Assembly: GCA_977017645.1 (NCBI GenBank)
Contig: OZ360229.1
Coordinates: forward strand, 26,288,001-26,352,000
Direction: 5' to 3'
DNA length: 64,000 bases
DNA from: Torpedo marmorata
Taxonomy: Eukaryota
Shown here one piece after another: positions 1-43,526 of this stretch. Positions within the stretch are counted from its first letter, which is position 1. Every line of letters begins with the position of its first letter. The translations under genes were made by a program, and so were the position numbers. A model generated the notes under the pieces. The model saw nothing but the letters and a program-made list of their open reading frames with translations. It was not told the origin of the DNA and ran no database searches.

Positions 1-97
1 ACATATTGGACTTTGTTAGTAAATTAATTGAAACACGTCAAGAACAAGTATCTCACCTTGCCTCCAAGTGACTATTTGTTGGATTGAAGTCACTATA
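1..97 (+). repeat. 3' end of 5' LTR, BEL-derived copy 1
   Basis: Nearly identical to 10721-10817; the two diverge after position 98. Confidence 0.9.
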
Positions 98-559
98 TGT
101 TTAGTCAATGAAAGTGGTTGTTTGGAACAGAAAATTGAAGGAAAGAAGATAGAATAATCTCTCTGTGCTTTGGACTGATATTTAAAATAAAATGGTGGCC
201 ATCTTGGAGATGCCTCAAGTTAGGGGCAGTTTGTAATCCACATCCATCTGCCATGAATAACAGCCAGAGAGGGATTTAGAGCTTCAAATCTTTTTCTTTT
301 TTTTAAATTATTTTATTTAATTTTTTAAAATCACATAATACATAATTCAAAATATATAGTTTCCAAAATACAGTGATATAAATTTCCTCCCCCCACACCC
401 TCCCACCCCTCCCCAACCCCCCCAACCCCACTATTCTAAAAATAGAAATAGAAAAAGATAAAGAAAAAGAAAAAGAGATTAATAATGAGGAGAGAACCAT
501 CTGAAAACCAATTTTAATCTGGAGGTTAAACTCGCCAATAGATCTGATTTCCACAAATT

Positions 560-2886
560 TCAAATCCTCAAACCCATAACTCTCATATATGGGCTCCAAA
601 TTTTTAAAAAAGAATGATATTTATTACGTAAATTATAAGTAATTTTTTCCAAAGGAATACACGAACGAAGTTCTGCATGCCATCTATCTAAATTCAAATC
701 TAAATCTGATTTCCAAGTAATAGCAATACATTTTTTTGAAACAGCTAAAGCAATACGCAAAAATTCTACCTGATACATATTCAATCTATTCCTAATACTA
801 AATTTTCTAATATCTCCAAATAGAAATAACATAGGGTCCATTGGAAACCTAACATTAAAAACTCTCTCTAAAAAATTCTTAACTTTAAGCCAAAAATCTT
901 GAATCTTTGGACATAACCATGTAGAATGAACAAAAGAACCTACTTCATTCTTACATCTAAAACACAAATCCGACAATGTCGGATTAAATTTCTTTAATTT
1001 TTTTGGTGTTAAATATAATTGATGAAAAAAATTAAATTGTACCAATCTATACCTAACATTAATAACTTTAGTCATACTTAACTTACATAAATCTTCCCAA
1101 TGTTTTTGAGCTATATTAATATTTAAATCTAATTCCCATTTTAATCTTGATTTATGTAATCCTACTTTTGGCATTTTTCTCTGAAATAATTTATACATTT
1201 GAGAAATAAACTTATTAACATTTGCTTTAGTAATTAGTAATTCTAACTCATTATACCTTGGAGCAATCAAATTTTCTCCTAATTTCTCAACCATAAAAGC
1301 TTTAACCTGATAATAAACTAACCATGTATTATCTAATATATCAAATTTTTCTTTCAATCTTTGAAACGTAACAAATCTTCCCCTTCAAAACAATCTTTAA
1401 AATTTTTTATACCTTTTTGAAACCATGTTTTCAATAACTGATTATTCATAGTGAACAATAAAAGTGGATTTTGATATAATGGCATATTTAAAGAAATTAT
1501 TCCTTTCCCACCTATTTCTTTATCTACCTCTGTCCATACTTCCAATAAGTGTTTAATAATCGGTGAATTTTTCTTTTTTACTGATAATAATTTAGAATTC
1601 CACTTATAAATAATATCCTCTTTATAATTTTCTCCCATATTATTTAATTCTATATTAATCCAAGCAGAAGTTTTAGCTAAATCAAAAAATTCATTAACAA
1701 ATTTTAATTGAGCTGCTTTATAATAATATTGAAAATTAGGGAGTTGCATTCCTCCCATCTCATAATTCCATGTTAACTTCTCCATACTCACTCTTGCTAA
1801 CCCCTTTCCATAAAAATTTCCTAACTATAAATTTTAAATCTTAAAAAAAAATTTTTGGAATTCCAAAAGGAATTGATTGAAAAAGATATTGAATTCTTGG
1901 AAAAATATTCATCATAATACAATTTACTCTCCCCATTAAAGTTATAGGTAAATCTTTCCAATTTTCCAAATCTTTCTTTATTTTTGTAAATAAGGGTATA
2001 TAATTTAATTTATATAAATTTTCTAATTTTGTATCCACTTTTACTCCCAAATAATTAATTCCTTCTTTTGCCCACTTAAATTCCGTAACTTCTTTACATC
2101 TAGTATAATCACCTTGAGATAAAGCCATTATTTCACTTTTATCCGCATTAATTTTATATCCAGATATTTCACCATATTCTGTTAATATAATAGCTAAATG
2201 TTGAAGTGATAAAACTGATTTCATCATATATATTAATACATCATCTGCAAACAAACTAATCTTATGCTCTTCCATACCGACTTTAATCCCTACTATATTA
2301 GGATCTGTCCTAATCAATTCAGCTAAAGGTTCTATTGCCAAAACAAATAAAGCTGGTGATAAAGGACAACCCTGTCTTGTAGAACGCGTTAAAGAAAATT
2401 TTGACGATATTTGTCCATTTGTAATTACTTTAGCTGTAGGTTCCTTATATATAGTTTTAATCCAATTTATAAAAGTATTCCCAAAACCAAATTTTTCTAA
2501 CACCTTAAATAAAAAATTCCATTCTAATCTATCAAAAGCCTTTTCTGCATCCAACGTTACCACCAATGGTAAATCTTATTTCTTTTTATGAAAATTAATT
2601 AAACTTAATAATCTAGCTATATTATCTTTAGAATATCTATTTTTAATAAAACCCGCTTGATCTGAATGTATCAAATTTGGTAAATATTTAGCTATTCTAT
2701 TAGCCAAAATTTTTGCCATAATCTTATAATCTACATTTAATAAAGAAATAGGTCTATATGACTCCGTTTTTAATACATCTCTATCTTTCTTTGGTATAAC
2801 TGTAATAATAGCATTCAAAAAGGTTTTTGGTAATAAATGAGTTTCCGTAATCTGATTTAATACTTCCATATATAGGGGTATCAATA
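560..2886 (-). pseudogene. L1 ORF2 reverse transcriptase and C-terminal CCHC region, frameshifted
   Basis: YRPISLLN, LDAEKAFD, RQGCPLSP, LFADD, YLGV and CFRC..H..W.C spread over four ORF pieces. Confidence 0.92.
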
Positions 2887-2916
2887 ACTACAAAAATAGC
2901 GTCAGAGGTAACGCGC

Positions 2917-4044
2917 ATGCGCGAATCAGGAAGATCACGTGAAGCACAGCGACCTCCGTCACAGGAGTACGTTAGAAGAAAAGACGCTCCCCAGACTGTA
3001 TTACAGCTGGGGGAGCTAGAAACATTGTCGGAGTCGGAAACCAGAGAGAGAGAGGCCCAACAGTTTGAAGAAGGGGACAGTGAGGAGTATGAACCATACC
3101 CAGAAGAGGTTATAAAGGATATTGGATCTATAAAGAATACTCAACAAAGAATATTACAAGCCATTACTAGGCTTGAACAACATATGCAGAGTGAATTTAA
3201 AGAAGCAAAACAGAATATGAAGAAAATGGAAACAGCTATGGATAAGATGGAGGTGAGAATGCAAAAGATGGAAGATGATGCTAAAATTAATTATGATGAT
3301 TTTGTGGACTATAGAGAAAGAGTGGATAAATTGGATGATTCATTTACTGGCTGGGAAAAGCAAAGAGATCAGATATTACAAAAGATGGATCAGATGGAAA
3401 ATCAAAGCCGAAGAAATAATGTTAAGATATTGGGATTACCTGAAGGTATGGAGCCGCAAGATCCAACTCAATTTTTTCAAGATTGGCTTATGCAAATATT
3501 TACTTTGGATAAACCAGTGGAGTTGGAGAGAGCCCATAGAATTGGAAGACGAGATCAGATAGATCGGAGACCTCGTCCAGTTTTGCTGAAATGTCTTAGA
3601 TATCAAGATAGAGAAAAAATAATAAGAATGGTGATTCAGAAGTCAAGAGAAAGCGGGACTCCGTTGTTGATTGATGGTAACAGAGTGCTTTTTTATCCAG
3701 ATCTAAGCTCGGCTGTGGTTAATAAGCGGAAGGAGTTTAACCTTACGAAGCAAATATTATGGCAGAAAGGGTATAAGTTCTCGTTTAAATTTCCTGCGAC
3801 TTTGAGAATTCAAAATGATGGAGATAAATCTATCTTATTTATGGATCCCCAGCAAGCACTTATTCATGCGAGAAGTCTTCCTCGTTTGCCTGGAAGTTAT
3901 AATTTGATTGCACGGCGACAAGAGCAAAACCGAGAAGATCAGCAAGGTCAAGTGGTGCCACCGTTGGTTGCGTCAGGAGAAGAAAATATTTTGGTTCAAG
4001 TCGAAGGAGAACAAGAAGAACTGGATTTGGGAGGAGTTAATTGA
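2917..4044 (+). CDS. L1 ORF1p (coiled coil + RRM + CTD); open frame, extreme N-terminus possibly clipped at the inversion junction
   Basis: Heptad region followed by RRNNVKILGLPE, ELERAHR, RPRPVL and FYPDLS motifs typical of L1 ORF1. Confidence 0.85.
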   Translation: MRESGRSREAQRPPSQEYVRRKDAPQTVLQLGELETLSESETREREAQQFEEGDSEEYEPYPEEVIKDIGSIKNTQQRILQAITRLEQHMQSEFKEAKQNMKKMETAMDKMEVRMQKMEDDAKINYDDFVDYRERVDKLDDSFTGWEKQRDQILQKMDQMENQSRRNNVKILGLPEGMEPQDPTQFFQDWLMQIFTLDKPVELERAHRIGRRDQIDRRPRPVLLKCLRYQDREKIIRMVIQKSRESGTPLLIDGNRVLFYPDLSSAVVNKRKEFNLTKQILWQKGYKFSFKFPATLRIQNDGDKSILFMDPQQALIHARSLPRLPGSYNLIARRQEQNREDQQGQVVPPLVASGEENILVQVEGEQEELDLGGVN

Positions 4045-4309
4045 ATTTATACTGTATGGTTTTATATTGATCTATTGGGGGGGGGTGGATATATTGGTAC
4101 TTCTTCCGAACCAATCACCACCTTAGCGGCGGAAGCTGCTACTCGAACAATGGAGGGGGGTAACACTGAGTTATCTGTGTTTTTTCTAAAAGGGTTTTTC
4201 TTATTTCTTTTTCTTTCTTTTATTTCATTTGAGGAGAGAATAGTTAAAATGCAATTTAGGAGGGAATCGCTAATAGACATGATAGATAGACAAAGATTAC
4301 AATGTGGTT

Positions 4310-5749
4310 ATGATGGATTCTAGAAGTATAAATTTAGTAAGTATTAATATAAATGGGCTTAATAATCCAATAAAGAGGAAAAGAACTTTGGCATACATGA
4401 AAAAGTTGAAAGTAGATATAGCTTTTTTACAGGAAACTCATTTAACAGAGGTTGAGCATCAGAAATTAAAAAGAGATTGGGTTGGACATGTTGAAGCTTC
4501 AACATTTAATTCTAAAGCTAGAGGAGTTGCAATTTTAGTTAATAAGAAATTACCTTTTAAAATACAGTCGGTAGTAGTAGATGTGGTAGGTAGATACGTT
4601 TTGGTTAACTGACAGATTTATTCAGAATTTTAGACACTTATGAATTTATATGTTTCAAATCCAGATGATGAACAATTTATTCAAGATGCATTTTTACATT
4701 TATCAGATGCTAAAGATAATATTTTAATTAGGGGGGATTTTAATTGTTGTCTGGATTCAATCATGGATAGGACTTCTAGATCGTTAGTTAGGCCTAAAAT
4801 AGTTAAAAGAATTATAAATTTGATGAAAGATTTGAATTTAATAGATATTTGGAGGAAATTGAATCCTAGAGAGAAAGATTATTCCTTTTATTCTTTTAGA
4901 CATGATTCATATTCTAGGATAGATTTGTTTTTAATATCTTCGCAAATTCAAGATAGAATATCACAGGTATCATATAAAGCGAGAATAATTTCAGATCATT
5001 CACCTTTGTTAATGACATGTGTAATTCCAGAAAAAGAGAAAACTATATTTAATTGGAGATTTGATTCATCTTTATTGAAAAGGATAGATTTTTGTGAATA
5101 TATGAGAAGGGAAATTCAAGAATTTTTGAGGATAAATGATCAATCAATTAATGATAAATTTATAATTTGGGAAACTTTAAAGGCTTATCTTAGAGGTTTG
5201 ATAATAAGTTATTTGGCAAAAATTAAAAAAGATTATTTGAAAGAAGCAGAAAAATTAGAGAAAGAGATTGAGATTATGGAAAAAGATTTACAGAGAAATA
5301 AATCAATTCGTAAGAGAAATTGTTTAATGAGGAAAAAGTTACATTATAATTTATTACAAACGTATAAAACGGAAAAATTAATAGAAAGAATGAAACAAAG
5401 ATGTTATGAATTAGGAGAAAAGGCTCATAAAGTTTTAGCATGGCAATTGAAAAAGGAACAAGTTTCTAAAACTATAAATGCTATAAAGAAAAAAAATACT
5501 GGTGAAATAACTTATAAACCCCAAGAAATAAATGAATCTTTTAAAGATTATTATCAGAATTTATATAGATCTCAGGTTGTTCAGGATGATTTGAAAATTA
5601 ATAGATTCTTATCTAGAATTACTTTACCTAAATTAAATACTCAAAATAAAAATTTTTTAGACTTACCTTTTATGATGAGAGAAGTTAATGAAGTATTATC
5701 GACGTTAAAAAGTGGTAAATCCCCTGGTGATGATGGATTTCCAGTAGAG
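4310..5749 (+). pseudogene. L1 ORF2 APE endonuclease and linker (inverted segment)
   Basis: NINGLN, FLQETH, GDFN, SRIDLF, SDHSP, ending at KSPGDDGFPVE; two in-frame stops at about 4610-4635. Confidence 0.92.
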
Positions 5750-6020
5750 CTTCAAATCTTATAGTAAAGTGTACTATAAATACGTTGGAGAAACCATTTC
5801 TGGAAAATCAGCGATATAATTGATGGATGTTGTGGTGAAACTCGTTTGTTGAATAGCAGCACATTACATTCATCTGAAGTGGTAGGCATAAGTCTGTGGA
5901 TTCCTGTGTATCTTTGGCAAGTTAGAACACAGATTGGATTTGCTGCCGCTGGTCCATTGGGGACTGTTGATTTGGCTAGTGTTGTGTATGCTTGAAGGAC
6001 AGTGGAACAAGATGAGTAAA

Positions 6021-9000
6021 ATGGCTGCAGCAGCCGCTGACGCAGCAACCTCTGATGTTGCTGTTAAGGACCAATGTATTGAAGGCATGCAGGTTGCGGA
6101 TATTAAAGAAGAATTTAAGCGAATTAAACTAGATATAAGTGGAAATAAAAGGGTTCTCATCGCAAGACTGAAGCTGGCAAAGGAAGATGTGGTTTTGTTA
6201 GATGAACAAGAAGATAGCCAATGTGGAAATGGCTGAAATTATGTCACCAAATGATGAAGAAAATGAAGAGGATGAAGATGCAAAAGATGTACAATTCGAA
6301 TTGGTGAAGGAGGTAAGTAAGAAGACAACATATGATCTGCAGGACGAAATACAAGCAAGTGACAGTGTCTCAAATGCTGAAAGCAGGAGAAACAAACGAA
6401 GTTCTGGTTCGAGCTCCAGAGTTTCTCGTACTTCAAGTTCTGCATCGTCACATACAAAGATTGAAGTTGACTTGGCCGCTCTTATTGCACGACAAAATTC
6501 TCTTAAGGATAAACATGTTTTAGAAGAACAGGAGGAGGAAATAAGAGAATAGGAGGAACAGCTGAGGCAGACAACAGGAGGAGCAGCTGAGGCAGAGTCA
6601 ATAGGAGGAGCAGCTAAGGCAGAGCCAACAGGAGGAACAGCTGAGGCAGAGACAACAGGAGGAGCAGCTAAGGCAGAGTCAACAGGAGGAACAGCTAAGG
6701 CAGAGCCAACAGCTAAGGAAGAGACAAGAGCAGCTAAGAAAGAGAAAAGAGCAGCAGGAGCTGAAAACAAATATTGCTATTGCCATGGCCAGAAAGAAAG
6801 CAATAGAAGGCTCAATGGTATCTGGTGTTCAGAGTAAATTATCTAAAGTGTCTGATAATAAAAGGTCATATTTTAAAAAAGAGTCACAGGGAAAGAAACC
6901 AACCAAAAAGGTAGATATTTTAGCAACAGGGGTACAAGACTTGCAAATACAAGGACAAATCCTTCAAGAGCATAGTGGTATCGAGTCACATGTACCAGTG
7001 GTAGGTAACATCTGAAGACAAAGTTGCGGCTTGGGTTCGGTCGAACGATGCAGCTCCCTTGTCATTTGAGTCAAGCATCAGAAATATGGGAGGAACTACA
7101 CCAGTGAGGTTTCCAGATAAATTACCTGTAACAAGAGGTGGTGAACAGAGCAATGTATTGTCATCCAAGGGAAGACAAAATGAAATTGCTGCATCATTGA
7201 TTCAGTTACAGTCTCTCTCTTCTTTGCCTAAGAAAGAGATAAAAACATTTGATGGTGATCCACTTCAGTACCAAGCGTTCATGAGATCTTTCAAACGCAA
7301 TATTGAAAATAAATGCCAAGAAACTGATGAATGTCTTTATTATTTGGAAATGTTCACAGAAGGACATCCAAAAGAACTTGTAAAGAGTTGTCAACATATG
7401 TCCTCAGACAGAGCTAAATCTTTATTAAAACAACATTTTGGCAACAAGCATCGAATTGCTTTAGCTTATATGGATAAAGCTCTTAAATGGACATCAATAA
7501 AACAGAATGATGTAAAGGCTCTACAAGCATATACTCTATTTTTAAGAGGATGTTGTAATGCCATGGAAGATATCGATAATATTCATGAGCTTGAAGTGCC
7601 TGGTAATATGTGAATCATCTTAGAAAAATGATCTTACAAGTTGTGGGATAGATGGAGAAATTTGGCTTGTGATTTACAAGAAAAGTACAGTCGAAGAACT
7701 ACTTTAAAGGACTTGGTAAATTTTCTTGAACGACAGGTGTACATTGAAACAGATCCAATATATGGAAATACCAGAGACAATTCAATGGGGAACAAAGATG
7801 TAAGGAGGTCTAACTCACAGCCTAGTCCGAAATTGAAAAGGAGTACTTTTGCTACTAATGTGTCAGATTAAAAGATAAAGTAAATAAGGAAAAGGAAAGT
7901 TTGACTGATGAGAAGAGTTGTTTGTTCTGTAAAGGTGGACATACTTTGGAAATGTGTTTACGTTTGGGAAAAAAAGGAATATAATGAGATCGCTTTTTTA
8001 AAGGAAAATGGAATATGTTTTAGGTGTCTGTGTAAAGGGCACATCAGAAAAAACTGCGAGAAGCGAATTATCTGTAACATATGCAATTTGAAACATCCTA
8101 GAATTTTTCATATCCATCAAAGAAAGAAGGAATTGGAAAAGGAGCAAACAGAAACAAAGGAAACAACAGAAAACAATGTTATAACCTCGGTTCAGACAAG
8201 TGGTCTTACCGGGGTCGGTATAGATAACTGCGAACTTTTAATAGTGCCTGTACAAGTCAAGACCAATAAAGGGGATGCAACAGTACATACATATGCATTT
8301 CTTGACCTAGGCAGTACTGCATCTTTTTGCATGGAAGGACTAATGAACAAACTTAATATTCAAGGAAGAAGGTCAAGAATTATGTTGAAAACCATGGGAC
8401 AAGAAAAGGTCGGTGAAACCAGCATTGTGTCAGGCTTAGAAGTAGCTGGATTGGATGACAAAAAAATTTGTGATCTTCCAATGTTATATACTCAAAAGAC
8501 TATGCCTGTGCACGAAGGAAACATTCCTCATCAAAATGATTTCCATCATTTGTCTTATCTATGGAAGGTTTATTTACCTGAAGTTAACTCTGAGATAGAA
8601 ATGCTGATTGGTTCAGATGTACCAAAGGTTTTGGAACCACTAGAAGTAATATGGAGTAGAGGGAATGGACCTTACGCTGTTAGAACCAAGCTTGGTTGGA
8701 CAATCAATAGACCATTGGAAAGAAATAATGATATTGCTCAGGAACAGTTAGCGATAAATATTAACAGGATTTCGGTTGTGAAAGTTGATGAGTTAAGGGA
8801 AGAGCAAAAGACTGTGATTAAGAAAGTCACTTTTGAAGAAAAGAAAATAGATCAATGTGAAAATAAATCAAAGGTATTTAAAACAACATTGAAAGAATTA
8901 TTTTCATCAGAAATGGATGAAAATGAAGTATTAGAAGATGTTGCAAATAATACTATTGATTATTCATGTGTATTTGAATCAGATACAGGAATAAAACTAG

Positions 9001-9892
9001 TGACTGAGAACAAATTTGAAAGTAGGTTTTGTAGTTCGGAGGTTACAACAGACAAAGGCCATGAAGAAATGTTGCAATGTGGTGTAAAACTGGAGAACAC
9101 AGGAAATTGTGCTGCTCGGAATGAAGAAGAATGTGAATGATAATTTAAATGCAATTAAATTCAGAGAACAAAATGTTGAAAGGGGAATTGGAAATATTAG
9201 ATAATCATGAAAACAGTAAACAGAAAGATTTAATTGTAAGTAAAATTCGCAAAATCAGAAAGCGGAAGAAAGGAATGACTGCTGAAGAAATAAATACAGT
9301 TATTGAGGAAAGAGATTCAGCATTATCAAAATGTAAAAGGTTAGAGGAAGAGATTAATATTTTGAAAGAGAACAAGTTATTGGTTAAAACACAAAACAGT
9401 TGATTATAGAAAACAATCAAGAATGTAAATTGAATGTTCAGCTACAAACAATGAAAAAAGTGATATTGTATTGCAGAAATGTAACAAGCAAGATGAAGAA
9501 ATTCAAAAATTTCAAGTTTACCACAACAGGGTTGATAATAGAAACACCAATGTCTCACATAATATTTTCACTTCAGATCAAGTTATTAATTTCTCGCAAG
9601 GAACTGAGACGGAATTGAAAGCTGCAAAATTGGATTTGGAATTGCATGAAAAGGCAATAGAAATCAGAGTGGTTAAAGAGACTCGTTTATTAAAATCGAG
9701 AAGATCAGATAAATATTCAAATTCTAGTTCTAAGAGTTTAAATTCTTCACATGAGAAGTGGAATGCTGAAGAAAGGAATAAAGTGAAACGACATGCTGAA
9801 GAAGTGCCTCGTGTTAAATTTTGTTTGAGGAAGATTTGAGGTTTACTGGTCGACGTTTTAACTCAAATATTCTGGAGATAAAAGAACTTTGA
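6021..9892 (+). pseudogene. Chimeric polyprotein: SAP domain - BEL gag - zinc knuckles - aspartic protease - MIPOL1-like coiled coil (disrupted)
   Basis: ORF pieces at 5934, 6202, 6785, 7059, 7641, 7908, 9149, 9400 and 9471 are colinear with copy 2. AAAATGG start at 6021 and stop after KEL at 9890. Confidence 0.8.
6546..6765 (+). repeat. About 27-bp coding minisatellite (GGAGGAGCAGCTAAGGCAGAGCCAACA; EEQLRQSQQ)
   Basis: About six clear units plus degenerate ones read directly. Confidence 0.85.
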
Positions 9893-10074
9893 GGAGACAT
9901 TGTAATTATTATGGACGATTCAGCTCCTCGAAACTCCTGGATACTTGGAAAAATTATTAGACTATTCAGGACAAAAGGGGACTTGTGCGTCAAGTTCGAA
10001 TTAAAACTAAGACCGGCTTTCTAAATAGACCTATTAACAAGGTCTGCCTTCTGTTGGAGACAGAGGAACTTTGA
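9893..10074 (+). pseudogene. BEL integrase C-terminal tail remnant (DUF5641-like)
   Basis: GDIVIIMDDSAPRNSWILGKII..DKRGLVRQVRIKTKTGFLNRPINKVCLLLE. Confidence 0.8.
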
Positions 10075-10274
10075 TAAATACAACCTGACTTTATTTGTTG
10101 TTGTATACTTCACAGGTTACAGACTTTTGTTGATTCAGAGTTATGGTAAACTCTGGTCTTATGAAGAAAGAAGATTTGTATATTGTTTGAATGTTATATG
10201 GTTATTGTTATTTGTAATTGATTGTGTAGTTATTATTTAAGACATTGTGTCTCGTTATAATAATTAGGGGCCGG

Positions 10275-10817
10275 TGTAAGAGCCGTAGGTTTAGTTACAT
10301 ACCTTCTTCGCGGCGTTCCGATGGTCTCGGCGGGGTTCGGAGGAGTCGCGGTGTTTAGTAGTTCGTGCTGGGCCTATTTAGTACTCTGCACATGCGCGAG
10401 AGTGCCGACGGGCGCATGCGCAGTTGGGAAGTGACGGCAGTATGCGCGGTGGAGTATGCGCGGTGAGCATGCGCGAATCGGGGAAGAAAGAATAGAAAAA
10501 GATGGCGGCTTACAGGAGGGTGAGTGAGATCGCTATATCTTTCATTGACCGTCAAAAAAATGTCAAAAGAATGTTTAATGTAACGTTTAAAGGAAGTTTA
10601 TAGATGTTTTGAAGAATCGTTATTAATCATCGTTATCAAGAATTGTTTATATTTCATTAAAAAAGATATTTAAGTTATTGAAGATTGCTACAAGTCATCA
10701 TGTGTTAATAAACATTTTGAACATATTGGACTTTGTTAGTAAATTAATTGAAACACGTCAAGAACAAGTATCTCACCTTGCCTCCAAGTGACTATTTGTT
10801 GGATTGAAGTCTCTATA
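10275..10817 (+). repeat. 3' LTR of BEL-derived copy 1
   Basis: Starts TGTAAGAGCCGTAGG after the PPT; CpG-rich 5' part; AATAAA near 10707; end matches 1-97. Confidence 0.88.
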
Positions 10818-27369: not shown

Positions 27370-29645
27370 ATACAAAAGGACCCGCCTTGTTTGGAAGGGA
27401 TTGGTTGTCGCACATCCAACTGGATTGGAAGGAAATTGTTGTGGTGAATAACATACAAACTATGGGCGAAAAGAAATCAAAGCTGAAGCAGATGCTTCAG
27501 AAGTGTCAGACAGTTTTTGAGAAGGACCTGGAAAAAATTCAGGGAGTCCAGGTAAAATTGCAATTGGAACCGGAAGCCAAACCTAAGTTCTTTAAGCCAA
27601 GGACGGTACCTTTCGCGATTTAAAAAAAGGAATTGAGACGGAGCTCAACAGATTAGAAAACGAAGGAATACTCGAGAAACTTCAGTACAGCGACTGGGCA
27701 GCTCCTATTGTGCCGGTCAGAAAACCCAATGGTGAAATTCGAATTTGTGGGGACTATAAGGTCACAATTAACCAAGCACTGCAAGTTCCCGGACATCCCA
27801 TTCCGAGAGCAGAGGAATTATTTCAAGCTCTAAATGGTGGGAAAAAGTTCACGAAATTGGACTTATCACAAGCGTATCAACAAGTCGAATTGGACCCCGA
27901 ACCAAGGAAGTATGGGGCTATCAACACTCACCTGGAATTGTTCACTTACACCAGGATGCCATATGGGATATCATCAGCTCCAGCAATATTTCAAGCTGTC
28001 ATGGTCAAACTATTGCAAGGACTAAATGTTGGATGTTACCTAGATGACATCATCATAACACGTCGGGACGACGCAGAGCATCTAACAAACCTGGAAAAGG
28101 TCCTTGCCAGGTTAGAACAGGCTAAAGTCCGACTGCATCAAGACAAGTGTGTATTTATGGTACCCTCAGTAACGTATTTGGGATTTATGATTGACCGTGA
28201 AGGAGTCAGGATGGATACAGCTGGCACCGAAGCCGTTTGCCGTGCACCTTGCCCATCGAATCGAGCTGAGTTACAATCGTTTTTAGGTTTGGTTAACCAT
28301 TATCGGAAGCACATCCCTAACATGTCAACGCTGTGCAACCCGCTCAACCAATTGTTAAAAAAAGACCAGAAATGGTGCTGGAATGCGGAAACCGACAAAG
28401 GTTTCAATTGCTTGAAGAAATTGCTGATCTCAAGGGACAATGTTCTCGTTCATTACGACCCAGACAAGGAAGTGACCCTGGCTGTTGATGCTTCACCTAT
28501 TGGTTTAGGTGCGGTATTGTCACAAGTCACGGAAAAGGAGAACAACCGGTTGCATATGCTTCCCGCTCCTTGACGGCCTGTGAACGGAACTATGCGCAAC
28601 TGGAGAAGGAAGGACTAGCCATAATCTTTGGGCTTAAGCGATTTCACCAATACCTATATGGTAGGATGTTTACTTTAGTGACGGACAATAAACCACTGAG
28701 CTTGTTCTTAGGCCCCAAGAAAGGCATTCCTGTGTTAGCGGCGGCGAGAATGAAAGATGGGCGATGGAGCACGCGGCGTACGATTATGACCTAAAGCATC
28801 GTCCGGCAGACAAGAACAGCCATGCGGATGCATTATCGCGCTTACCTCTGCCTGTGACAGAACAGGCGGAAGGGAACATTAATTGGACAACGGAAGCCAC
28901 AGCGATCATCCAGGAACAACTTCACCACTTGCCTATTACAGCGAAGGCTATCAGCAAAGATGTACAGAAAGAAGCTAAACTGTCGAAGATTCTATACTTC
29001 ACCTTGAATGGGTGGCCAGAGGCCGACAGTATTACCCCCGAATTGAAAGCTTATCACACGGGGCGAAACAAAATATCAATTGAAGAGGGTTGCCTGTTGT
29101 GGGGAACAAGAACAATCATCCCCAAGAAATGGCAAGAGGCCATGCTAAAAGAGCTCCACACCAATCATCCAGATGAAGGCGCTGGCACGCATGCATGTCT
29201 GGTGGCCATCGATTGACAGTGACATTGAACAGATGGTGCGGAGATGTCACATCTGCCAAGAAATGCAACCGAAGGCACCCCAGGCCATGGAAATGGTCAT
29301 CACAACCATGGCACCGAATTCACATTGATTTCGCTGGTCCATTTATGGGGGGAAATTTTCTGATTATTGTGGATGCACACTCTAAATGTAGTGCCAATGC
29401 GGTCAATGACAACGGAAAAAAACAATTGAGGAACTACGAGGTGTGTTCACAGGGTATGGATTCCCCATAGAACTGGTTTCAGACAATGGACCTCAATTTG
29501 TGTCAGATGCTTTCAAACAATTTCTGCGAGGCAACAATGTGCGACACATATTATCTGCACCCTACCACCCTAGTACTAATGGGGAAGCGGAGCACTTCGT
29601 GCAGACGTTTAAAAGAGCAATGAAAGCAAAGAAGTCATGTACATA

Positions 29646-33507: not shown

Positions 33508-35608
33508 AGATTTACCATTAGTATTAACGCTAGATGCTGAAAAGGCTTTTGATAAATTAGAGTGGAATTTTTTATTTAAGGTATTGGAGAAATTTGGCTT
33601 CGGAACTACATTTATTAATTGGATTAAAACTATATATAAAGAACCATCTGCTAAAGTAATTACAAATGGACAAATTTCTTCAAGATTTCCCCTGACTAGA
33701 TCTACTAGACAAGGATGTCCTTTGTCACCAGTGTTATTTACTTTGGCGATAGAACCTTTGGCAGAATTAGTTAGAAAAGATGTTAAAATTGTAGGTATTA
33801 AAGTTGGAACGGAAGAAGATAAAATTAGTTTATTTGCAGATGATGTATTGATATATATGACAAAACCTATTACATCTTTAGTACAATTGTCTGCTTTATT
33901 GAGAGAGTATGGGGAAATATCTGGATATAAAATTAACTCTGATAAAAGTGAAATTATGGCATTATCACAAGGGGATTATAGTAAATGTAAAGATATTACA
34001 CAATTTAAATGGGCAAAAGAAGGAATTAAATATTGGGAATAAAGATTGATACAAAATTGGCTAATTTATATAAATTAAATTATTTACCATTGTTTATGAA
34101 AATAAAAAAAATTTAGAAAATTGGAAAGATTTACCTATAACTTTAATGGGAAGAGTAAACTGTATTAAAATGAATGTTTTTCCAAGAATTCAATATCTTT
34201 TTCAATCAATTCCTTATGATTTAACTAAATCTTCTGCTTGGATTAGAATAGAATTAAATAATATAGGAGAAGATACTAAAGAAGGAGTTATTTATAAATG
34301 GGATTCTAAATTAATATCAACAAAAAGGAAAAATTCTCCTATTCTTAAACATCTGTTAGAAATTTGGAGTAAGATGGATAAAGAAATAGGAGGAAAAGGA
34401 ACGATTTCTCCTGATGCCTTTATATCAAAATGAACTTATTCCATTTACTATTAATAATCAATTATTTAAAATTTGGTTTCAAAAAGGAATTAAGAAAATA
34501 AATAATTGTTTTGAAGCTGGGAAATTTATTACTTTTCAAAGAATGAAAGATAAATTTAATATATTGGATAATACACTTTTTTCTTATTATCAAATTAGAG
34601 CATTTTTGGTTGAGAAATTAGGTTATAATCTGATTCTACCAAGACAGAATGAATTAGAATTATTAGTTACTAAAGGAGATGTAAATAAATTTATCTCTCA
34701 AATGTATAAATTGTTTCAGAGAAAAGTTCCTAAAGTAGGAATTCATAAATCAAGATTAAAGTGGGAATTAGATTTGAATGTAATAATAGATGAAAATCAT
34801 TGGAAAGAATTATGTAAGTTAAGTATGACGAAGATTATTAATGTCAGATATAGATTAGTACAATATAATTTTTTTTCATCAATTATATTTAACACCCAAA
34901 AAATTAAAGAAATTTAATCCGACATTATCAGGTTTATGTTTTAGATGTAATAAAGAGGAAGGTTCTTTTGTACATTCTACATGGTTTTGTCCAAAAGTTT
35001 ATGATTTTTGGTTGAAAGTTAAAATGTTTTTAGATAAAGTATTTAAGATTACATTTCCAATGGACCCTATGTTATTTTTATTTGGAGATATTAAAAAACT
35101 TAGTATTAAGATGAAATTAAATATGTATCAAATAGAATTTTTGCAAATTGCTTTAGCTGTTTCAAAGAAATGTATTGCTATTACTTAGAAATCTGATGTA
35201 GATTTAGGGTTAGAAAGATGGCATGCAGAACTTCGTTCATGTATACCACTTGAAAAAATTACTTACAATTTACGCAATAAGTATCATTTCTTTTTAAAAA
35301 TTTGGAGCCCATATATGAAAGTTGTTGGTTTAAGAATTTGAAAATCTCTGGATATCGGATCTCTGGCGAACCTAACCTCCATAATAGAATTAGTTTATAG
35401 ATTTAATTTTTAGATTGACATTCTCCTTATTCTATCTTTTTCTTTCTTTCTTTTTATTTTTATTTTATTAGATTAGTAGGGATGGGAGGGTTAGGGAGGG
35501 GAGGGTGGGAGAGGGGGTGAAAATATATCACAAGTATTTTGATAATTTTATATTTTATCTTATGTATTTTGTGATTTAAAATTTTAAATAAAATATTTTT
35601 TTAAAAAA
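33508..35608 (+). mobile_element. L1 LINE, 5'-truncated (RT to poly(A))
   Basis: LDAEKAFD, RQGCPLSP, LFADD; 15-bp TSD AAGAAGGTACAAACA at 33493-33507 and 35609-35623. Confidence 0.92.
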
Positions 35609-35623
35609 AAGAAGGTACAAACA

Positions 35624-36480
35624 GTGGATGACGAGAAATCAAAGTTACAACAAGTGCTTTTGAAATATCAATCCGTGTTTGGAAAAAGCCTGGGAAAAAT
35701 TCAAGGAGTCCAAGTCAAATTACAAGTAAAACCTGAAGCAAAAGCTAAGTTTTTTAAACCAAGGCCAGTATCTTTTGCGATAAAGAGGGGAATTGAGACC
35801 GAACTGAATAGACTAAAAGCGGAAGGAATAATTGAAAAACTTCAATATAGTGACTGGGCTGCTCCTATCGTACCGGTCAGAAAACCCAGCGGCAAAATAA
35901 GAATTTGTGGCGATTACAAGGTCACAATAAACCAAGCCCAACAAGTGCCCGGACATCCAATTCCGAGAGCGGAAGAACTATTTCAAGCCCTGAATGGCGG
36001 AAAAAAGTTCACTAAGTTAGACTTATCGCAAGCGTACCTACAAGTTGAAATGGATCCGGAATCAAAAAAATATGTGGCTATCAACACCCACCTAGGATTG
36101 TTTACGTATACGAGAATGCCATATGGGATCTCATCAGCACCTGGAATATTTCAGTCAGTGATGGATAAGTTATTACAAGGAATAAATGTTGGATGCTACT
36201 TAGACGACATTATCATAACGGGTTAGGACGACGCAGAACACCTAACTACCCTGGAAAAGGTCCTAGCCAGGCTAGAACAGGCTAAAGTTCGACTGCGTCA
36301 AGACAAGTGTGTCTTTATGGTGCCCTCAGTAACATATTTGGTGTTCACAATTGACCACGAAGGGGTCAGAATGAATACAGCGGGCACCGAAGCCGTTCGC
36401 AGAGCACCCTGCCCATCAAACCGAGTGGAGTTGCAATCCTTCTTGGGATTGGTTAATCATTATCAGAAGCACATTCCTAA
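35624..36480 (+). pseudogene. Gypsy 2 pol, RT part
   Basis: WAAPIVPV, ICGDYK, YLDD. Confidence 0.9.
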
Positions 36481-38293
36481 TATAACCATATAACCATATA
36501 ACAATTACAGCACGGAAACAGGCCATTGGGCCCTTCCAGTCTGCACCGAACCAAACATTCCTATCTAGTCCCACCTACCTGCACCCTGCCCATAACCCTC
36601 CACTTCCTTCTCATCCATATACTTGTCCAACTTTTTCTTAAATAATAAAATTGACTCTGCCGCCACTACTTCTCCCGGAAGCTCATTCCACACCGCTACC
36701 ACTCTCTGAGTAAAGAAGTTCCCCCTCATGTTACCTCTAAACCTCTGCCCCTTAACTCTTAGCTCATGTCCTCTTGTTTCAATCTCTCCTACTCTTAATG
36801 GAAATAGTCTATCCACATCCACTCTGTCTATCTCTTTCATAATTTTAAATACCTCTATCAAATCCCCTCTCAACCTTCTACGCTCCAAAGAATAAAGACC
36901 TAATAGGCTCAATCTCTCCTTGTACTCTACCTTCTTAAACCCAGGTAACATTCTGGTAAACCTTCTCTGCACTCTCTCCACTTTGTTGATATCCTTCCTA
37001 TAATTTGGCGACCAGAACTGCACACAGAACTCTAAATTAGGCCGCACCAAAGCCTTATATAATCTCAACATCACTTCCCAACTCCTATATTCTATGCAAT
37101 GATTGATAAAGGCCAGCATACTAAATGCCTTCTTCACCACCCTATTCACATGAGTTTCCACCTTCAGGGAATGATGCACCGTTATTCCTAAATCTTTCTG
37201 CTCTTCTGTATTCATCAATGCTCTCCCATTTACTACATATGTCCTGTTCTGATTCTTCTTACCAAAATGAAGCACCTCACACTTATCAGCATTAAACTCC
37301 ATCTGCCATTTTTCAGCCCACTTTTCTAACCAGCCCAAATCCCTCTGCAATCCTTGAAAACCTTCATTATCCACTATTCCACCTATCTTAGTATCATCTG
37401 CATATTTACTAATCCAGTTTACCACCCCATCATCTAGATCATTGATATATATAACGAACAACAATGGGCCCAATACAGATCCCTGAGACACACCGCTGGT
37501 CACCGGCCTCCAACCTGACAGACAATTATCCACTACCACTCTCTGGCCTCTCCCTTCCAGCCAATGTTCAATCCATTTGACTATCTCAGAATTTATACCT
37601 AAAGACTGCACCTTCCTAACTAACCTTCCATGCGGAACCTTATCGAAGGCCTTACTGAAGTCCATATAGACAACATCCACTGTGCTACCCACATCCACAT
37701 TCCTAGTCACCTCTTCAAAAAATTCAATCAGATTGGTGAAACAGGACCTTCCGCTCACAAATCCGTGTTGAGAGTTCCTGATCAGACCCTGCCTATCCAG
37801 ATATTTATAAGTACTATCTCTGAGAACTTTCTCCATTAATTTACCTACCACAGACGTCAAACTTACAGGCCGATAATTGCCAGGCTTCCTCCTTGAACTC
37901 TTTTTAAATAACGGAACCACATGCGCAATACGCCAATTCTCCGGCACTATCCCCATCTCTAATGACATTTGGAAAATCACCATCAGAGCCTCTGCTATTT
38001 CTTCACTTACTTCTTAAAGGTCCTGGGGAAGATCCCGTCGGGTCCCGGAGACTTATCCACCTTTATATGCCTCAAAAGCCCTAACACTACATCTTTCGTA
38101 ATCCCTATATTCTCCATATTTACCCAATTTGCTTTTTTTATCTCGCATATCTCAATATCCTTCTCCTTGGTGAATACCGAAGAAAAGAAACTGTTCAATA
38201 TCTCCCCCATTTCTCTAGGCTCCACACACAGTTTTCCGCTCTGATTCTCTAAGGGACCAATTTTGTCCCTCGCTTTCCTTTTACCATTAACGT

Positions 38294-38869
38294 TATTATG
38301 GTGACTTCGATCCAACAATAGTCACCTGGAGGCTAAGTGATATACTTGTCTTTGACGCGTTTTAATTAATTTACCAACAAAGTCCAATATGTTCAAAAGT
38401 CTTTATTTACACACGTGACTTGCAGTAATCTTCAATGACTTAAATATAAACAGTTCTTGAAAACGATGTATGATGAGTTTCTTTAAATGATTCTTTAACC
38501 AATTCCAAACTACAAAGTAACCAGTTCAATGTTCTGAAACGATGTATAAGACGTTATAAAACGGTCAATAAAGATATGGAAATTTCACTCACCCTCCTAC
38601 ATCTTATTCTTTCTCCTATTCTCTCATTCGCGCATGCCCCGTCGCTCCCATACCACTGCGCACCCTCCATCGCGCATACTACATTTCCCAATATACACCG
38701 CGCAAAATGACGTCACTCCAGACTGCGCATGCGCCCGTCGGCACTCCAGCGCATGCGCAGAGCACAGAACGGGCCGAGGACAGCCTACAGACAACGCGAG
38801 CGCTCCACAACCCGACGAGACATCGGAGCGCCGCAGCAAAGGTAAGTTAATGAGCCTACGGCTCTTACA
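38294..38869 (-). repeat. 3' LTR of BEL-derived copy 2
   Basis: Direct repeat of 43527-44101. Confidence 0.95.
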
Positions 38870-39065
38870 CCGGCCCCTAATTATTATAATTAGATGCAAT
38901 GTCTTGAATAATAATTACACTATAAATTATAAATAACAATAACCATAACATTCAAACAATACAAATCTTCTTTCTTCCTTGTTCATAAACCTAGAGTTTA
39001 CCATAACTCTGAAAAGTCTGTAACCTGTGAAATATACAACAACAAATAAAGTCAGTTTATATTTA

Positions 39066-39250
39066 TCAAAGTTCCTCTGACTCCAACAAAAGAGACAGAC
39101 CTTGTTAATAGGTCTGTTTAAAAAACCAGTCTTAGTTTCAATTCACACTTGACGCACAAGTCCCCTTTTGTCTTGAAAAGTCTCAATAATTTTTCCAAGT
39201 AACCAGGAGTTTCTTGAAGTTGAATCATCCATTATAATCACAATGTCTTT
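39066..39250 (-). pseudogene. BEL integrase C-terminal tail remnant
   Basis: DIVIIMDDSTSRNSWLLGKIIETFQDKRGLVRQV..KTGFLNRPINKVC. Confidence 0.8.
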
Positions 39251-42200
39251 TTAAAGTTCTTTTATCTCCATAATCTTTGAGTTAAAACGTCAACCAGTAA
39301 ACCTCAAATCTTCCTCAGACAAAATAGATACAGTTTTTCTTTTGAATTTAACACAAGGCACTTCTTCAGCATGTCGTTTCACTTTATTCCTTTCTTCAGC
39401 ATTCCACTTCTCATGTGAAGAATTTAAACTCTTAGAACTAGAATTTGAATATTTATCTGATCCTTTCGATTTTAATAAACACGACTGTTTAACCACTCTG
39501 GTTTCTATTGCTCTTTCCTGCAATTCCAAATCCAATTTTGCAACTTTCAATTCAGTCTCAGTTCTTTCTGAGAAATTAATAATTTGATCTGAAGTCAAAA
39601 TATCATGTGATACATTGATATTTCCATTGTCAATCCTGTTGCGACAAACTTGAAATTTTTTAATTTCTTCATCTTGTTTGTTACATTTCTGCAATGCAAT
39701 ATCACATTCTTTCTGCATTGTTAATTGTTGAACATTCAATTTACATTCTTGATTGGTTTTTAAAGACAACTGTTTTGTGTTATTAACCAATAACTTGTTC
39801 TCTTTCAAAACATTAATCTCTTCCTCCAAACTTTTACATTTTGATAATGCTGAATCTCTTTCCTCAATAACTGTATTCATTTCTTCAGCAGTTATTCTTT
39901 TCTTCCGCTTTCTGACTTTGCGAGTTTTACTTACAATTAAATCTTTCTGTTTACTGTTTTCTTGATTATCTAATATTTCCAATTCCCCTTTAAACATTTT
40001 GTTCTCTGAATTCAATTGCATTAAATTATCATTCACATTATTCTTTATTCCATCAGCACAATTTTCTGTGTTTTCCAGTTTTACATCACATTGCAATATT
40101 TCTTCATTAGTTTTGTCTTTTGTAATCTCTGAACTACAAAATCTACATTCAGATTTGTTTTCAGTCACTTGTTGTATTCCTGTATCTGATTCAATTACAC
40201 ATGATCAATAGTATTATTTGCAACATCTTCTAATACCTCACTTTCATCCATTTTTGATGAAAATAATTCCTTCAATGTTGTTTTAAATACCTTTGATTTA
40301 TTTTCACATTGATCAGTTTTCTTTTCTTCAAAAGTGATTTTCTTATTCACAGTATTTTGCTCTTCGCTTAACTCTTCAACTTTCACAACCGAAATTCTAT
40401 TAATATTTATCGCTAACTGTTCCTGAGCAATATCATTATTTCTTTCCAGTGGTCCATCGATTGTCCAACCAAGCATGGTTTTAACAGCATAAGGTCCATT
40501 CCTTTTACTCTCTATTACTTCTTTTGGTACCAAAACCTTTGGCACATCTGAACCAATCAGCATTTCTATCTCAGAATTAATTTCAGGTAAATAAACCTTC
40601 CACAGATAAGCTAAATGATGAATATCCCTTTGATGAGGAATATTTCCTTCATTCACAGGCATAGTCTTCTGAGTATATACACTTGGAAGATCACAAAATT
40701 TTTTGTCATCCAATCCAGCAACCTCTAAGCCTGAAACAATGTTAGTTTCAACAACCTTTTCTTGTCCCATGGTTTTTAACATAATTCTTGATCTTTTTCC
40801 TTGAATATTAAGTTTATTCATTAGTCCTTCCGTGCAAAAAGATGCAGTGCTGCCTGGATCTAGAAATGCATATGTTATTACTATTGCATCCCCTTTCTTG
40901 GTCTTGACTTGTACAGGCACTATCGAAAGTTTGCAGTTATTCACACCGGCCCCGGTAAGACCACTTGTCTGAACCGAGGTTATAACATTATTTTCTGTTG
41001 TTTCCTTTGTTTCTGTTTGCTATTTTTCCAATTCCTTGTTTCTGTTATGGATATGAAAAATTCTAGGATGTTTCAAATTGCATATGTTACAATTAATTCG
41101 CTTCTCGCAGTTTTTACTGATGTGTCCTTTACACAGATAGCTAAAACATATTCCATTTTCCTTTAAGAAAGCGATCTTTTCCTTATGTTCCTTCTTTTCC
41201 AATCGTAATCACATTTCCAAAGCATGTCCACCTTTACAGAACAAACAACTCTTTTCATCAGGCAAACTTTCCTTTTCCTTATTTACTTTGTCCTTTTCTT
41301 TACTTATAACTTGCACATTAGTAGCAAAAGTACTCCTTTTCACTTCGGACTAGACTGTGTGTTAGACTTCCTTACATCTTTGCCGATTGAATTATCTCTG
41401 GTATTTCCATATAGTGGATCCATTTCAACGTACACCTGTCGTTCAAGAAAATTTACCAAATCCTTTAAGGTAATTTTTCGACCGTAATTTACTTGTAAAT
41501 CACAAGCCAAATTTCTCCATCTATCCCATAACTTGTAAGGTAATTTTTCTAAGATGATTCGCATATTACTATGCTCTTCAAGCTCACGAATATTATCGAT
41601 TTCTTCCATAGCATTACAACATCCTCTTAAAAACAGAGTATATTCTTGCAGAGCCTTTACATCATTTTGTTTTATTGATGTCCATTTAAGAGCTTTATCC
41701 ATATAAGCTAAAGCAATTCGATGCTTGTTGCCAAAATATTGTTCCAGTAAAGCCTTAGCTTTGTCTAATCCTCTTTTTGAAGACATTTGTTTACAACTCT
41801 TTACCAGTTCTTTTGGATGTCCCTTTGTGAACATTTCCAAATAATAAAGACATTCATCACAATCTTGGCATTTATCTTCAATATTGCGTTTGAAAGATCT
41901 CATAAATGATTGATATTGAAGTGGATCACCATCAAAAATTTGTATCTCCTTCTTGGGTAAAGAAGAGAGAGACTGTAACTGAAACAATGATGCAGCAATT
42001 TCATTTTGTCTTTCCTTGGATGACAATACATTGCTCTGTTCACCGTCTCTTGTTGCATGCAATGTATCTGGAAACCTCACTGGTGTAGTTTCTTCCATAT
42101 TTCTGATGCTTGACTCAAATAACAAAGAAGCTGCTTCGTTCGACCGAACCCAAGCCGCAGCTTTGCTTTCAGATGTTACCATTGATACATGTGACTCGAT

Positions 42201-43070
42201 ACCAATATGTTCTTGAAAGGTTTGTCCTTGTATTTGCAAATCTTGTATCCTTGATTCTAAAATATCTATCCTTTTGGTTGGTTTCTTTTCCTGTGATTCT
42301 TTTTTTAAATATGACCTTTTATTATCAGACACTTTAGATAATTTACTTCTAGCACCAGATACCATTGAGCCTTCTATTGCTTTCTTTTCTACCTTGGCAA
42401 TAGCAATGTTTGCTTCCAGCTCCTGCTGTTCTTTTATCTGCCTTAGCTGCTCCTTCTCTTGTCTTAGCTGCTCCTCCTCTTGTTTTAGCTGCTCCTTTAT
42501 CTGCACCTCCTTTTGTCTTATCTGCTCCTCCTTTTGTTCTAAAATATGTTTATTCTTAAGCGTTTTTTGTTGTGCAAGAAGAGCGGCCAATTGAACATCA
42601 ACCTTTGTACGTGACGATGCAGAACTTGAAGTACGAGAAACTCTGGAGCTCGAACCAGAACTTCTTTTGCTTCTCCTGTTTTCAGCATTTGAGACACTGT
42701 CACTTGCTTGTATTTCGTCCTGCAGTTCATATGTTGTCTTCATACTTACCTCTTTATCCAATTCAAATTGTATATCCTTTGCATCTTCAACCACTTCAAT
42801 TTCTTCATCATTTGTTGACACAATTTCAGCCATTTCCATTTTATCTTCTTGTTCATCTAATGAAGCTGCCTCTTCATCCTTTGCCTGCTTCAATCTTTCG
42901 ATAAGAACCTTTTTATTTCCACTTATGTCCTTTTTCAGTCGCTTCAATTCTTCTTTAATATCCGAAACCTTCATGTCTTCAATACGTTGGTCCTCAACAG
43001 CAACATCAGCGGTTGCTGCGTCAGCTGCTGATACATCAGTAGCTGCTGTATCAGAGACTGCTGCGGCCAT
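39251..43070 (-). pseudogene. Chimeric polyprotein: SAP - BEL gag - zinc knuckles - protease - MIPOL1-like coiled coil (few lesions)
   Basis: ORFs 41340-43157, 41020-41202, 40195-40944 and 39290-40168 join once lesions absent from copy 1 are corrected; protease AFLDPGS. Confidence 0.85.
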
Positions 43071-43526
43071 TTTACTCGTCTTGTTCCTCTTTCCTTCAAG
43101 CATACACAACACTAGCCAAATCAACAGTCCCCAATGGACCAGCGGCAGCAATTCCAATCTGTGTTCTTACTTGCTAAAGATACACAGAAGGAGTCCAAAG
43201 ACTTATGCCTACCACTTCAAATGACTGTAATGTGCTGCAATCCACAAACGAGTTTCAACCACAACATCTGTCAATAATATCACTGATTTTCCAAAAATGG
43301 TTTCTCCAACGTATTTATAGGACACTTTACTATAAGATTTGAAGCTTTAAATCCCTCTCTGGCTGTTATTCATGGCAGATGGATGTGGATTACAAACTGC
43401 CTCCAACTCGAGGCATCTTCAAGATGGCCACCATTTTATTTTAAATATCAGTCCAAAGAACAGAGAGATTATTCTATCTTCTTTCCTTCAATTTTCTGTT
43501 CCAAACAGCCAGCTCTTTATTGACTA

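Follow-up and report, generated by a model that had tools for sequence, protein, structure and literature searches.

A non-autonomous BEL/Pao retrotransposon family from Torpedo marmorata with BRCA1, MIPOL1 and Elongin A pieces in frame behind gag and a reversed MIPOL1 exon junction

Results

A BEL family with three host gene pieces in place of pol

We analysed a 64,000-nucleotide stretch of Torpedo marmorata DNA (contig OZ360229.1, positions 26,288,001 to 26,352,000; hereafter the window), which contains two copies of a chimeric BEL element, copy 1 on the forward strand and copy 2 on the reverse strand. In this element the region for reverse transcriptase (RT), RNase H and most of the integrase is replaced by pieces of BRCA1, MIPOL1 and Elongin A, which lie in one frame behind a SAP domain, gag and protease. 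The explanation that best accounts for the observations as a whole, and which we consider fairly likely, is that the family is a non-autonomous BEL/Pao retrotransposon which arose when templates were switched inside a BEL particle. The 6.2-Gb genome searched holds at least 12,700 family copies: exact junction patterns match 250 places in the host form and 12,493 in the derived form, and reversed control patterns match none.

Loci were compared in three groups. DNA searches, which returned dozens of colinear loci, provided the 30 best loci each for group B (copy-2-like) and group A (copy-1-like), and a search with stingray MIPOL1 provided group C, which is nearer to the host gene (20 short loci plus 20 long stretches, which coincide at 19 places). 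The loci of all three groups are thus the best-scoring matches to three queries and not a random sample.

Window positions 5745–10817 (copy 1) and 43349–38297 (copy 2) align over their full length at 84–85% identity. Both copies contain the SAP domain (Pfam PF02037; E = 2.7e-7 and 3.5e-9) and, by Pfam, a DUF1759 gag, followed by three Cys-His boxes, read from the translation, and a protease, for which the DUF1758-type match reached only E = 0.003, below the cut-off. Both LTR (long terminal repeat) pairs are flanked by 5-base target duplications, and the LTRs start with TG and end with TA rather than CA. The LTRs of copy 1 are 93.8% identical over 563 columns; its 5′ LTR (−464 to 97) is split from the gene by a 5.4-kb insertion of a long interspersed nuclear element (LINE). 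RT, RNase H and the integrase core are absent from both window copies and present in two full BEL elements of the same genome, L137 and L138. Because RT, RNase H/Peptidase_A17 and the integrase core are lacking, the window copies are non-autonomous BEL/Pao derivatives and neither is an autonomous member. The integrase tail (DUF5641) scored by profile on L137 and on a further locus, L012, and the remnant in the window was assigned by DNA match. The features are as follows.

1–97, forward strand: end of copy 1 5′ LTR, which begins at −464, beyond the window; target duplication TCAAT
293–5744, no strand assigned: LINE within the copy 1 5′ leader; 16-base target duplication; foreign to the element family
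6021–8807, forward strand: copy 1 SAP (6078–6173), coiled coil, DUF1759 capsid, three Cys-His boxes and protease; BEL-derived, with several breaks; 85.6% identical to full BEL L137 up to 8807
8808–9226, forward strand: copy 1 BRCA1-derived piece, about residues 241–380 of ray BRCA1 P0241
9227–9671, forward strand: copy 1 MIPOL1-derived piece, host exons F (part)-G-H / B (part)-C; back-splice-type junction between 9526 and 9527
9672–9871, forward strand: copy 1 Elongin A-derived remnants, P0121 residues 420–471 and 516–533
9890–10074, forward strand: end of the copy 1 chimeric frame (stop 9890–9892), then BEL integrase-tail (DUF5641) remnant
10275–10817, forward strand: copy 1 3′ LTR
43519–44101, reverse strand: copy 2 5′ LTR; target duplication ACGTT; 97.8% identical to its own 3′ LTR
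40357–43070, reverse strand: copy 2 SAP-gag-protease, BEL-derived; 93–94% identical to full BEL L137
39944–40356, reverse strand: copy 2 BRCA1-derived piece
39494–39943, reverse strand: copy 2 MIPOL1-derived piece; H-B junction between 39639 and 39638
39272–39493, reverse strand: copy 2 Elongin A-derived remnants; frame stops at 39292–39290
39066–39248, reverse strand: copy 2 BEL integrase-tail remnant, outside the reading frame
38286–38869, reverse strand: copy 2 3′ LTR

A first-pass annotation, made from the letters of the window, had described the two copies as colinear with the same domain order, as having lost RT, RNase H and integrase, and as sharing a MIPOL1-like block. All of this is borne out, with most rather than all of the integrase missing relative to the full BEL of the family. 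It had placed the end of the copy 1 feature at 10074; the frame ends at 9890, ahead of the integrase-tail remnant. The BRCA1 and Elongin A pieces, the scrambled order of the MIPOL1 exons and the 5′ LTR of copy 1 were absent from it.

The host pieces are all in the sense orientation, intron-free or exonic, and read in their own host frames. For the BRCA1 piece, six of six matches are shark or ray BRCA1 (best E = 1e-56), a search without a word index again placed ray BRCA1 at the top, and the pieces in the window align to residues 241–382 of the ray protein P0241. The Elongin A family (Pfam PF06881) scored above the cut-off in two group C frames, for which the best matches are ray Elongin A, and remnants are present in both window copies. 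The joins between pieces can be followed in natural open frames, namely protease-BRCA1-MIPOL1 in L117, MIPOL1-Elongin A in L072 and L126, and BRCA1-MIPOL1-Elongin A in copy 2 itself (window 40204–39290). As a side observation, residues 1–173 of P0241 share 40% identity with a retrotransposon frame that lies in L128, and the RING family is missing from its Pfam list; P0241 is possibly a gene model that absorbed transposon sequence.

The MIPOL1 piece joins two exons in reverse order at their splice edges

The best match of the MIPOL1 block is stingray MIPOL1 (E = 1.7e-25). Among the 120 matches listed, all named ones but two are called MIPOL1, and all share two Pfam families. Chance likeness between coiled coils was ruled out as the source of this label, since the older copies are 94–95% identical to the host exons in DNA. 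The host gene lies on the minus strand of contig C40, where exons A to H were mapped within 350 kb, with AG/GT edges for exons B to H. In the element the order is F (part)-G-H-B-C-D (start), without introns and, in every copy examined, without exon E, and the match to the host exons is gapless over 587 bases (94–95% identity in L066 and L068). The 3′ side of the piece joins Elongin A directly and a poly(A) tail is absent.

The end of exon H and the start of exon B meet exactly at their splice edges, which lie about 206 kb apart in the host and in the opposite order. This join is ungapped in 74 of 80 loci (27 of 30 in group A, 27 of 30 in group B, where three lack the block, and 20 of 20 in group C), and in nine of the 20 group C loci it is identical to the host edges over 24 of 24 letters. 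A tandem exon duplication in the host was ruled out for exons B-C: the B-C intron has a single match in the genome, so the reversed order does not stem from a host duplication, and each exon is single-copy within the 350 kb. Host exons B-H total 780 bases and remain stop-free through two rounds of a circle, of which the captured piece covers 590 bases; no clear exon A or post-H sequence was found in any locus by protein search. A reversed exon junction at splice edges is the criterion of Dong et al. (2016; PMC4897178) for retrocopies derived from circular RNA, and here the exon order and the lack of introns, of a poly(A) tail and of a duplication all agree with such an origin. The MIPOL1 piece was therefore probably copied from a circular RNA of exons B-H. 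In RNA, the element copies would imitate the junction of that parent circle.

Two side observations concern this piece. Host exon B (C40:64591881) has a tandem acceptor (TAG-CAG), and the captured RNA took the upstream site. In groups A and B the host-to-element changes in the block are mostly G>A, C>T and C>A (about 70%), a drift towards A and T.

A full BEL relative shares sequence with the family

The full BEL elements L137 and L138 encode RT, Peptidase_A17 and integrase together with an LTR, SAP and gag that match the family, and are free of host cargo. Their LTR, SAP, DUF1759 gag, protease and 3′ end are 89–95% identical to copy 2, which matches them at 93–94% up to 40357 and again from 39248, with the three host pieces in between. 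Because the full BEL has a SAP domain, this domain was inherited from it, and SAP as a captured host domain was ruled out. In a gag-protease tree, the full BEL nests inside the group B loci.

Locus L012 (C54:8200052–8206582) runs from the chimera front to the end of the BRCA1 piece and continues, in frame, with 563 bases that are 99.6% identical to the full BEL integrase end; the MIPOL1 and Elongin A pieces have been dropped. L012 is a recent recombinant of the chimera with a full BEL. When its positions 960–1500 were used as a query, all 40 scored matches to the full BEL integrase end were 99–100% identical, from which a very recent expansion of the full BEL family would follow.

FastTree analyses of unchanged stretches (gag-protease with 70 of 82 loci, cargo with 63; rooted on one C locus) give a ladder of group C, then A, then B. 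On this ladder, the family history looks like one of successive masters rather than of two sister lineages. The median identity of LTR pairs is 97.9% in 14 group B loci and 90.3% in 15 group A loci, the latter figure being noisy and taken from partial alignments. Runs X2, X4 and X5 from three other organisms cover all 30 bins of window 39040–41000, and one X2 contig of 930 bases spans the protease, BRCA1 and MIPOL1 pieces; because of this coverage, the family is not limited to one assembly.

Four family copies (L096/L097, L105 and L112; C40:64.34–64.50 Mb) lie within 350 kb around host MIPOL1, at least three of them intronic, a density that is within a few-fold of the genome-wide expectation. 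At C1:1498497–1518374, five junction matches follow one another at an exact spacing of 4,964 bases, which reflects a tandem element array or an assembly repeat.

The reading frame was almost certainly kept open

Breaks in the frame were scored against one unchanged copy as a ruler. Distinct breaks were confined to a single locus in 150 of 184 cases in group A and 66 of 75 in group B, and copies average 7.7 and 2.8 private-type breaks, respectively. Of those that are widely shared, some precede the start codon, some are private to the ruler and the rest form compensating pairs in a repeat, and stops within the ruler frame are common to no more than three loci in any of the three groups. Stops account for 3.8% of within-group differences, so that 6.4 would be expected among the 166 net changes of the cargo between B and C (P about 0.002) and 26 over the whole frame; the cargo test between A and B alone is not significant (1.3 expected, P = 0.26). 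Measured against the host exons, group A copies show 0.3 stop-making changes each, compared with 5.0 expected under the same base-change spectrum. Furthermore, the six recurrent length differences in the cargo between 12 group C loci and the window copies (285, 24, 120, 81, 195 and 111 bases) are all multiples of three, these being modal sizes from which single loci deviate by private slips. Since stops were avoided and recurrent length changes stayed in frame, the replicating lineage almost certainly maintained a single open frame that extends from SAP to the end of the MIPOL1 block, as the first-pass annotation had proposed for the ancestor of the two window copies.

The end of the frame is loose. 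It lies at 9890 in most A loci (TGA in 17 of 24 copy-1-like loci), 13 codons earlier in 14 of 16 B loci and further on in group C. The distance from stop to 3′ LTR is 152–390 bases in 13 A loci and 385–425 in 12 B loci, the C-terminus itself having shifted; it could be measured in only one of nine group C loci.

Nine lesions had previously been called private to one copy or the other. They are present where they had been placed and none is common to both window copies, but across the genome several recur: the loss at about 40200 in six of 29 copy-2-like loci, the stop at 39290 in 14 of 16 and the stop at about 7610 in three other loci. Fixed stops or frameshifts upstream of the MIPOL1 block had been named as evidence that would count against a maintained frame. 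No such stop exceeds three loci, and the frameshift at about 40200 is found in the six B loci.

The amino acids of the MIPOL1 block appear not to be conserved

In order to assess constraint, the ratio of replacement to silent substitution rates (dN/dS) was computed as net pairwise values between the groups, with host exons against copies as a second comparison. For the MIPOL1 block, the values between groups are 1.41 (0.71–4.79), 1.07 (0.62–2.07) and 1.20 (0.68–2.24), and those between host exons and copies are 0.99 (C), 1.28 (A) and 1.27 (B). The silent and replacement counts in F-G-H and in B-C equal the neutral expectation under the observed base-change spectrum, and F-G-H has no excess of silent changes (median P 0.55–0.86). 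Mutation bias masking constraint was ruled out, as the test with the observed spectrum shows no hidden silent excess. With dN/dS near 1 (0.99–1.41, intervals spanning 1), the amino acids of the MIPOL1 block appear not to be conserved. The selection on the chimeric protein that the first-pass annotation had deduced, and for which it had looked to values well below 1 in the SAP and MIPOL1-like blocks, is therefore not upheld for the MIPOL1 block. Purifying selection on captured coding sequence, the mark of a domesticated retrogene, was not found in the dN/dS of the MIPOL1 block, and the chimeric element is not a domesticated gene.

Elsewhere in the frame, dN/dS is 0.61–1.00 in the BRCA1 linker (intervals spanning 1), 0.48–0.58 in SAP (intervals including 1), 0.58 (0.38–0.85) in the capsid, 0.53 in the zinc-knuckle region and 0.32 (B-C, 0.20–0.48) in the protease. 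Because the full BEL falls inside the group B tree and L012 is a recombinant, the constraint on gag and protease is not creditable to the chimera; to judge from these exchanges, it can come from swaps with a helper full BEL, and we set it aside as proof for the chimera.

Other features of the window

The 33-base ‘EEQLRQ’ repeat of the gag coiled coil (window 6540–6740) is expanded in copy 1, and its length varies across many loci. The LINE at 293–5744, which we take from its translations to be L1-like, has its 3′ half (RT, with poly-T at 293) on the minus strand and its ORF1-endonuclease (first open reading frame and endonuclease) half on the plus strand, as in twin-primed inversion. Copy 2 is nested in another LINE (36488–45172), which in turn splits an element whose halves match 27454–29637, the whole nest occupying 35588–47229; presumably the LINE is CR1-like and the split element Gypsy-like. 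Weak Pfam matches to LPD13, OGG_N, YpM and TK, with E above 0.005, were taken as chance.

Discussion

A proposed origin of the family

Following the model of Tan et al. (PMC5131818), the capture would have been a double template switch in a particle that involved three RNAs, one of them back-spliced. By this route the RT-RNase H-integrase region would have been swapped for pieces of BRCA1, MIPOL1 and Elongin A transcripts in their host frames. The exon H-exon B junction at exact splice edges would be the trace of the B-H circular RNA. A full BEL whose LTR and gag match those of the family has exchanged sequence with it and very probably supplies RT and integrase in trans, since LTRs are shared, sequence was exchanged and target duplications are present. 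From master C through A to B, the cargo almost certainly became shorter and its amino acids changed at neutral rates, with stops and frameshifts kept out. Finally, the open cargo may serve as a track for ribosomes and not as a protein. With the stop about 150–430 bases from the 3′ LTR, the full-length RNA would escape nonsense-mediated decay and could be packaged; for this last step and its consequence we see the balance as even. Premature stops in gag are reported to lower unspliced Rous sarcoma virus RNA through Upf1 (PMC2925335), and none of the literature titles listed gives a direct precedent for a non-autonomous element whose frame was retained because of decay.

Several observations weigh against this account of the open frame. 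With a stop just after the protease, the 3′ untranslated region would still measure only some 2 kb and need not provoke decay; in humans, 80% of poly(A) tails are reported to lie within 2 kb of the stop (PMC2925335). The F-G-H coiled coil kept its length and neighbouring pieces lost 81–285 bases, which fits a structural role. The dN/dS intervals are wide, and their lower bounds (0.55–0.76) are compatible with weak constraint. The 4-base loss at about 40200 lies upstream of the MIPOL1 block, and four of the six loci that carry it share two rare alleles, so that a defective version may have been re-copied on a few occasions; the six loci are no closer to one another than random sets are (P 0.2–0.97), and the site is a slip-prone 4-base tandem repeat in many B loci.

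The main rival to the RNA-surveillance step is that the cargo works as a protein, the MIPOL1 coiled coil or the bulk of the tail helping the polyprotein to dimerise, to assemble or to recruit helper Pol, with helix character and length needed and exact residues not. The open frame is as this would predict, F-G-H lost only 3 bases as the BRCA1, exon B-C and Elongin A pieces were trimmed, and F-G-H replacements are slightly milder than random (mean BLOSUM 0.36 versus 0.14 in A and 0.22 versus 0.10 in B, given without a significance test). We nevertheless regard a protein role as unlikely, given neutral dN/dS and silent counts, BRCA1 and Elongin A remnants that look disordered and are equally open in frame, and a recombinant, L012, that does without the MIPOL1 block. 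A bolder version is similarly doubtful. Here the MIPOL1 B-H circular RNA, with an endless frame of 260 codons, would have been packaged in a BEL particle and joined to a translated polyprotein, and the cargo would have given a real advantage that let the family reach more than 12,000 copies across related species. That advantage might have lain in particle assembly or in interference with host BRCA1, Elongin A or MIPOL1 through protein or small RNA.

It is also conceivable that no circle was involved and that the H-B junction arose in linear RNA by trans-splicing or by exon repetition, or else when RT happened to jump from one linear MIPOL1 mRNA to another. On sequence alone a circle is indistinguishable from a trans-spliced linear RNA, as both leave the same junction; AG microhomology exists at both exon ends, and non-colinear junctions can form by other routes as well, as noted by Dong et al. 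(PMC4897178). We consider these routes rather improbable, since both sides of the junction fall exactly on distant splice edges, the piece stays within the 780 circle bases without clear exon A or post-H sequence, and genomic duplication is excluded for exons B-C. Least credible by far is a passive family whose frame is open by chance, or only seems so because of how copies were sampled, with no selection on the cargo. The choice of best-scoring loci, the frameshift common to six of 29 B loci and the A-B stop test point that way. Against it stand the B-C cargo test, the six in-frame length changes ((1/3)^6 = 0.0014) and the three capture joins in host frame; moreover, DNA queries are blind to open frames, and the sampled copies do carry private-type breaks.

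Comparison with known systems

The best explanation, a non-autonomous BEL/Pao element assembled by template switching, has partial precedents, of which maize Bs1 and the mouse circRFWD2 retrocopies come nearest. Maize Bs1 is an LTR element with three host gene segments in one new chimeric frame that has been re-copied (PMC13317346, PMC5131818). As in Bs1, several host gene pieces share one frame with gag and replace pol. Between one and five copies of Bs1 exist, and the element is reported to be transcribed and translated, whereas the chimeric family is known here from DNA; unlike Bs1, that family is built on a BEL backbone, occurs in a vertebrate in thousands of copies, shows neutral dN/dS in its cargo and contains a back-spliced junction. 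LTR-mediated retrocopies in animals, in which element frames are replaced by partial mRNAs via template switches, sometimes from several genes, include a four-gene mouse locus, one BEL case in mosquito and instances of secondary re-copying (PMC5131818). These are single or few loci, and the sections of Tan et al. cited here describe no long-lived succession of subfamilies, in contrast to the successive masters suggested for the chimeric family. The word ‘circular’ is absent from the main text of that paper.

The circRFWD2 pseudogenes of mouse (33 high-confidence copies) share with the chimera a non-colinear junction at splice edges, the lack of a poly(A) tail and an LTR-element setting, in their case flanks of MMERVK10C-int (PMC4897178). 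They were described as pseudogenes, whereas the chimera junction sits inside an open frame fused to gag; unlike for circRFWD2, the carrier and a likely helper are identified, and the copy number is several hundred times higher than that reported. How circular RNAs are retrotransposed was left open by Dong et al. in the part of their paper cited (PMC4897178). We found no report of the present element in the open-access literature. It is unusual for a vertebrate element to combine, in more than 12,000 copies, parts of three host genes with a back-spliced junction that lies within a maintained gag frame, and the case is testable. Gag is likewise fused in frame to more than one host piece in E26 (gag-myb-ets) and other defective retroviruses of the acutely transforming type, which have lost pol and depend on a helper, and whose cargo protein is selected for function. 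The chimera differs in that its cargo drifts neutrally, it has no envelope and there is no sign of infection.

Within one genome and at thousands of copies, the family reveals what carried the captured RNA, where the two switches took place, which element is a likely helper and what happened afterwards. It separates an open frame from a conserved protein, two properties that are usually read together, and it offers a test of whether a transposon frame can stay open through RNA surveillance alone. The more than 12,000 fragments of MIPOL1, BRCA1 and Elongin A in the genome will mislead gene annotation and circular RNA calling in such fish, and the element fragments could feed small RNAs against the three host genes.

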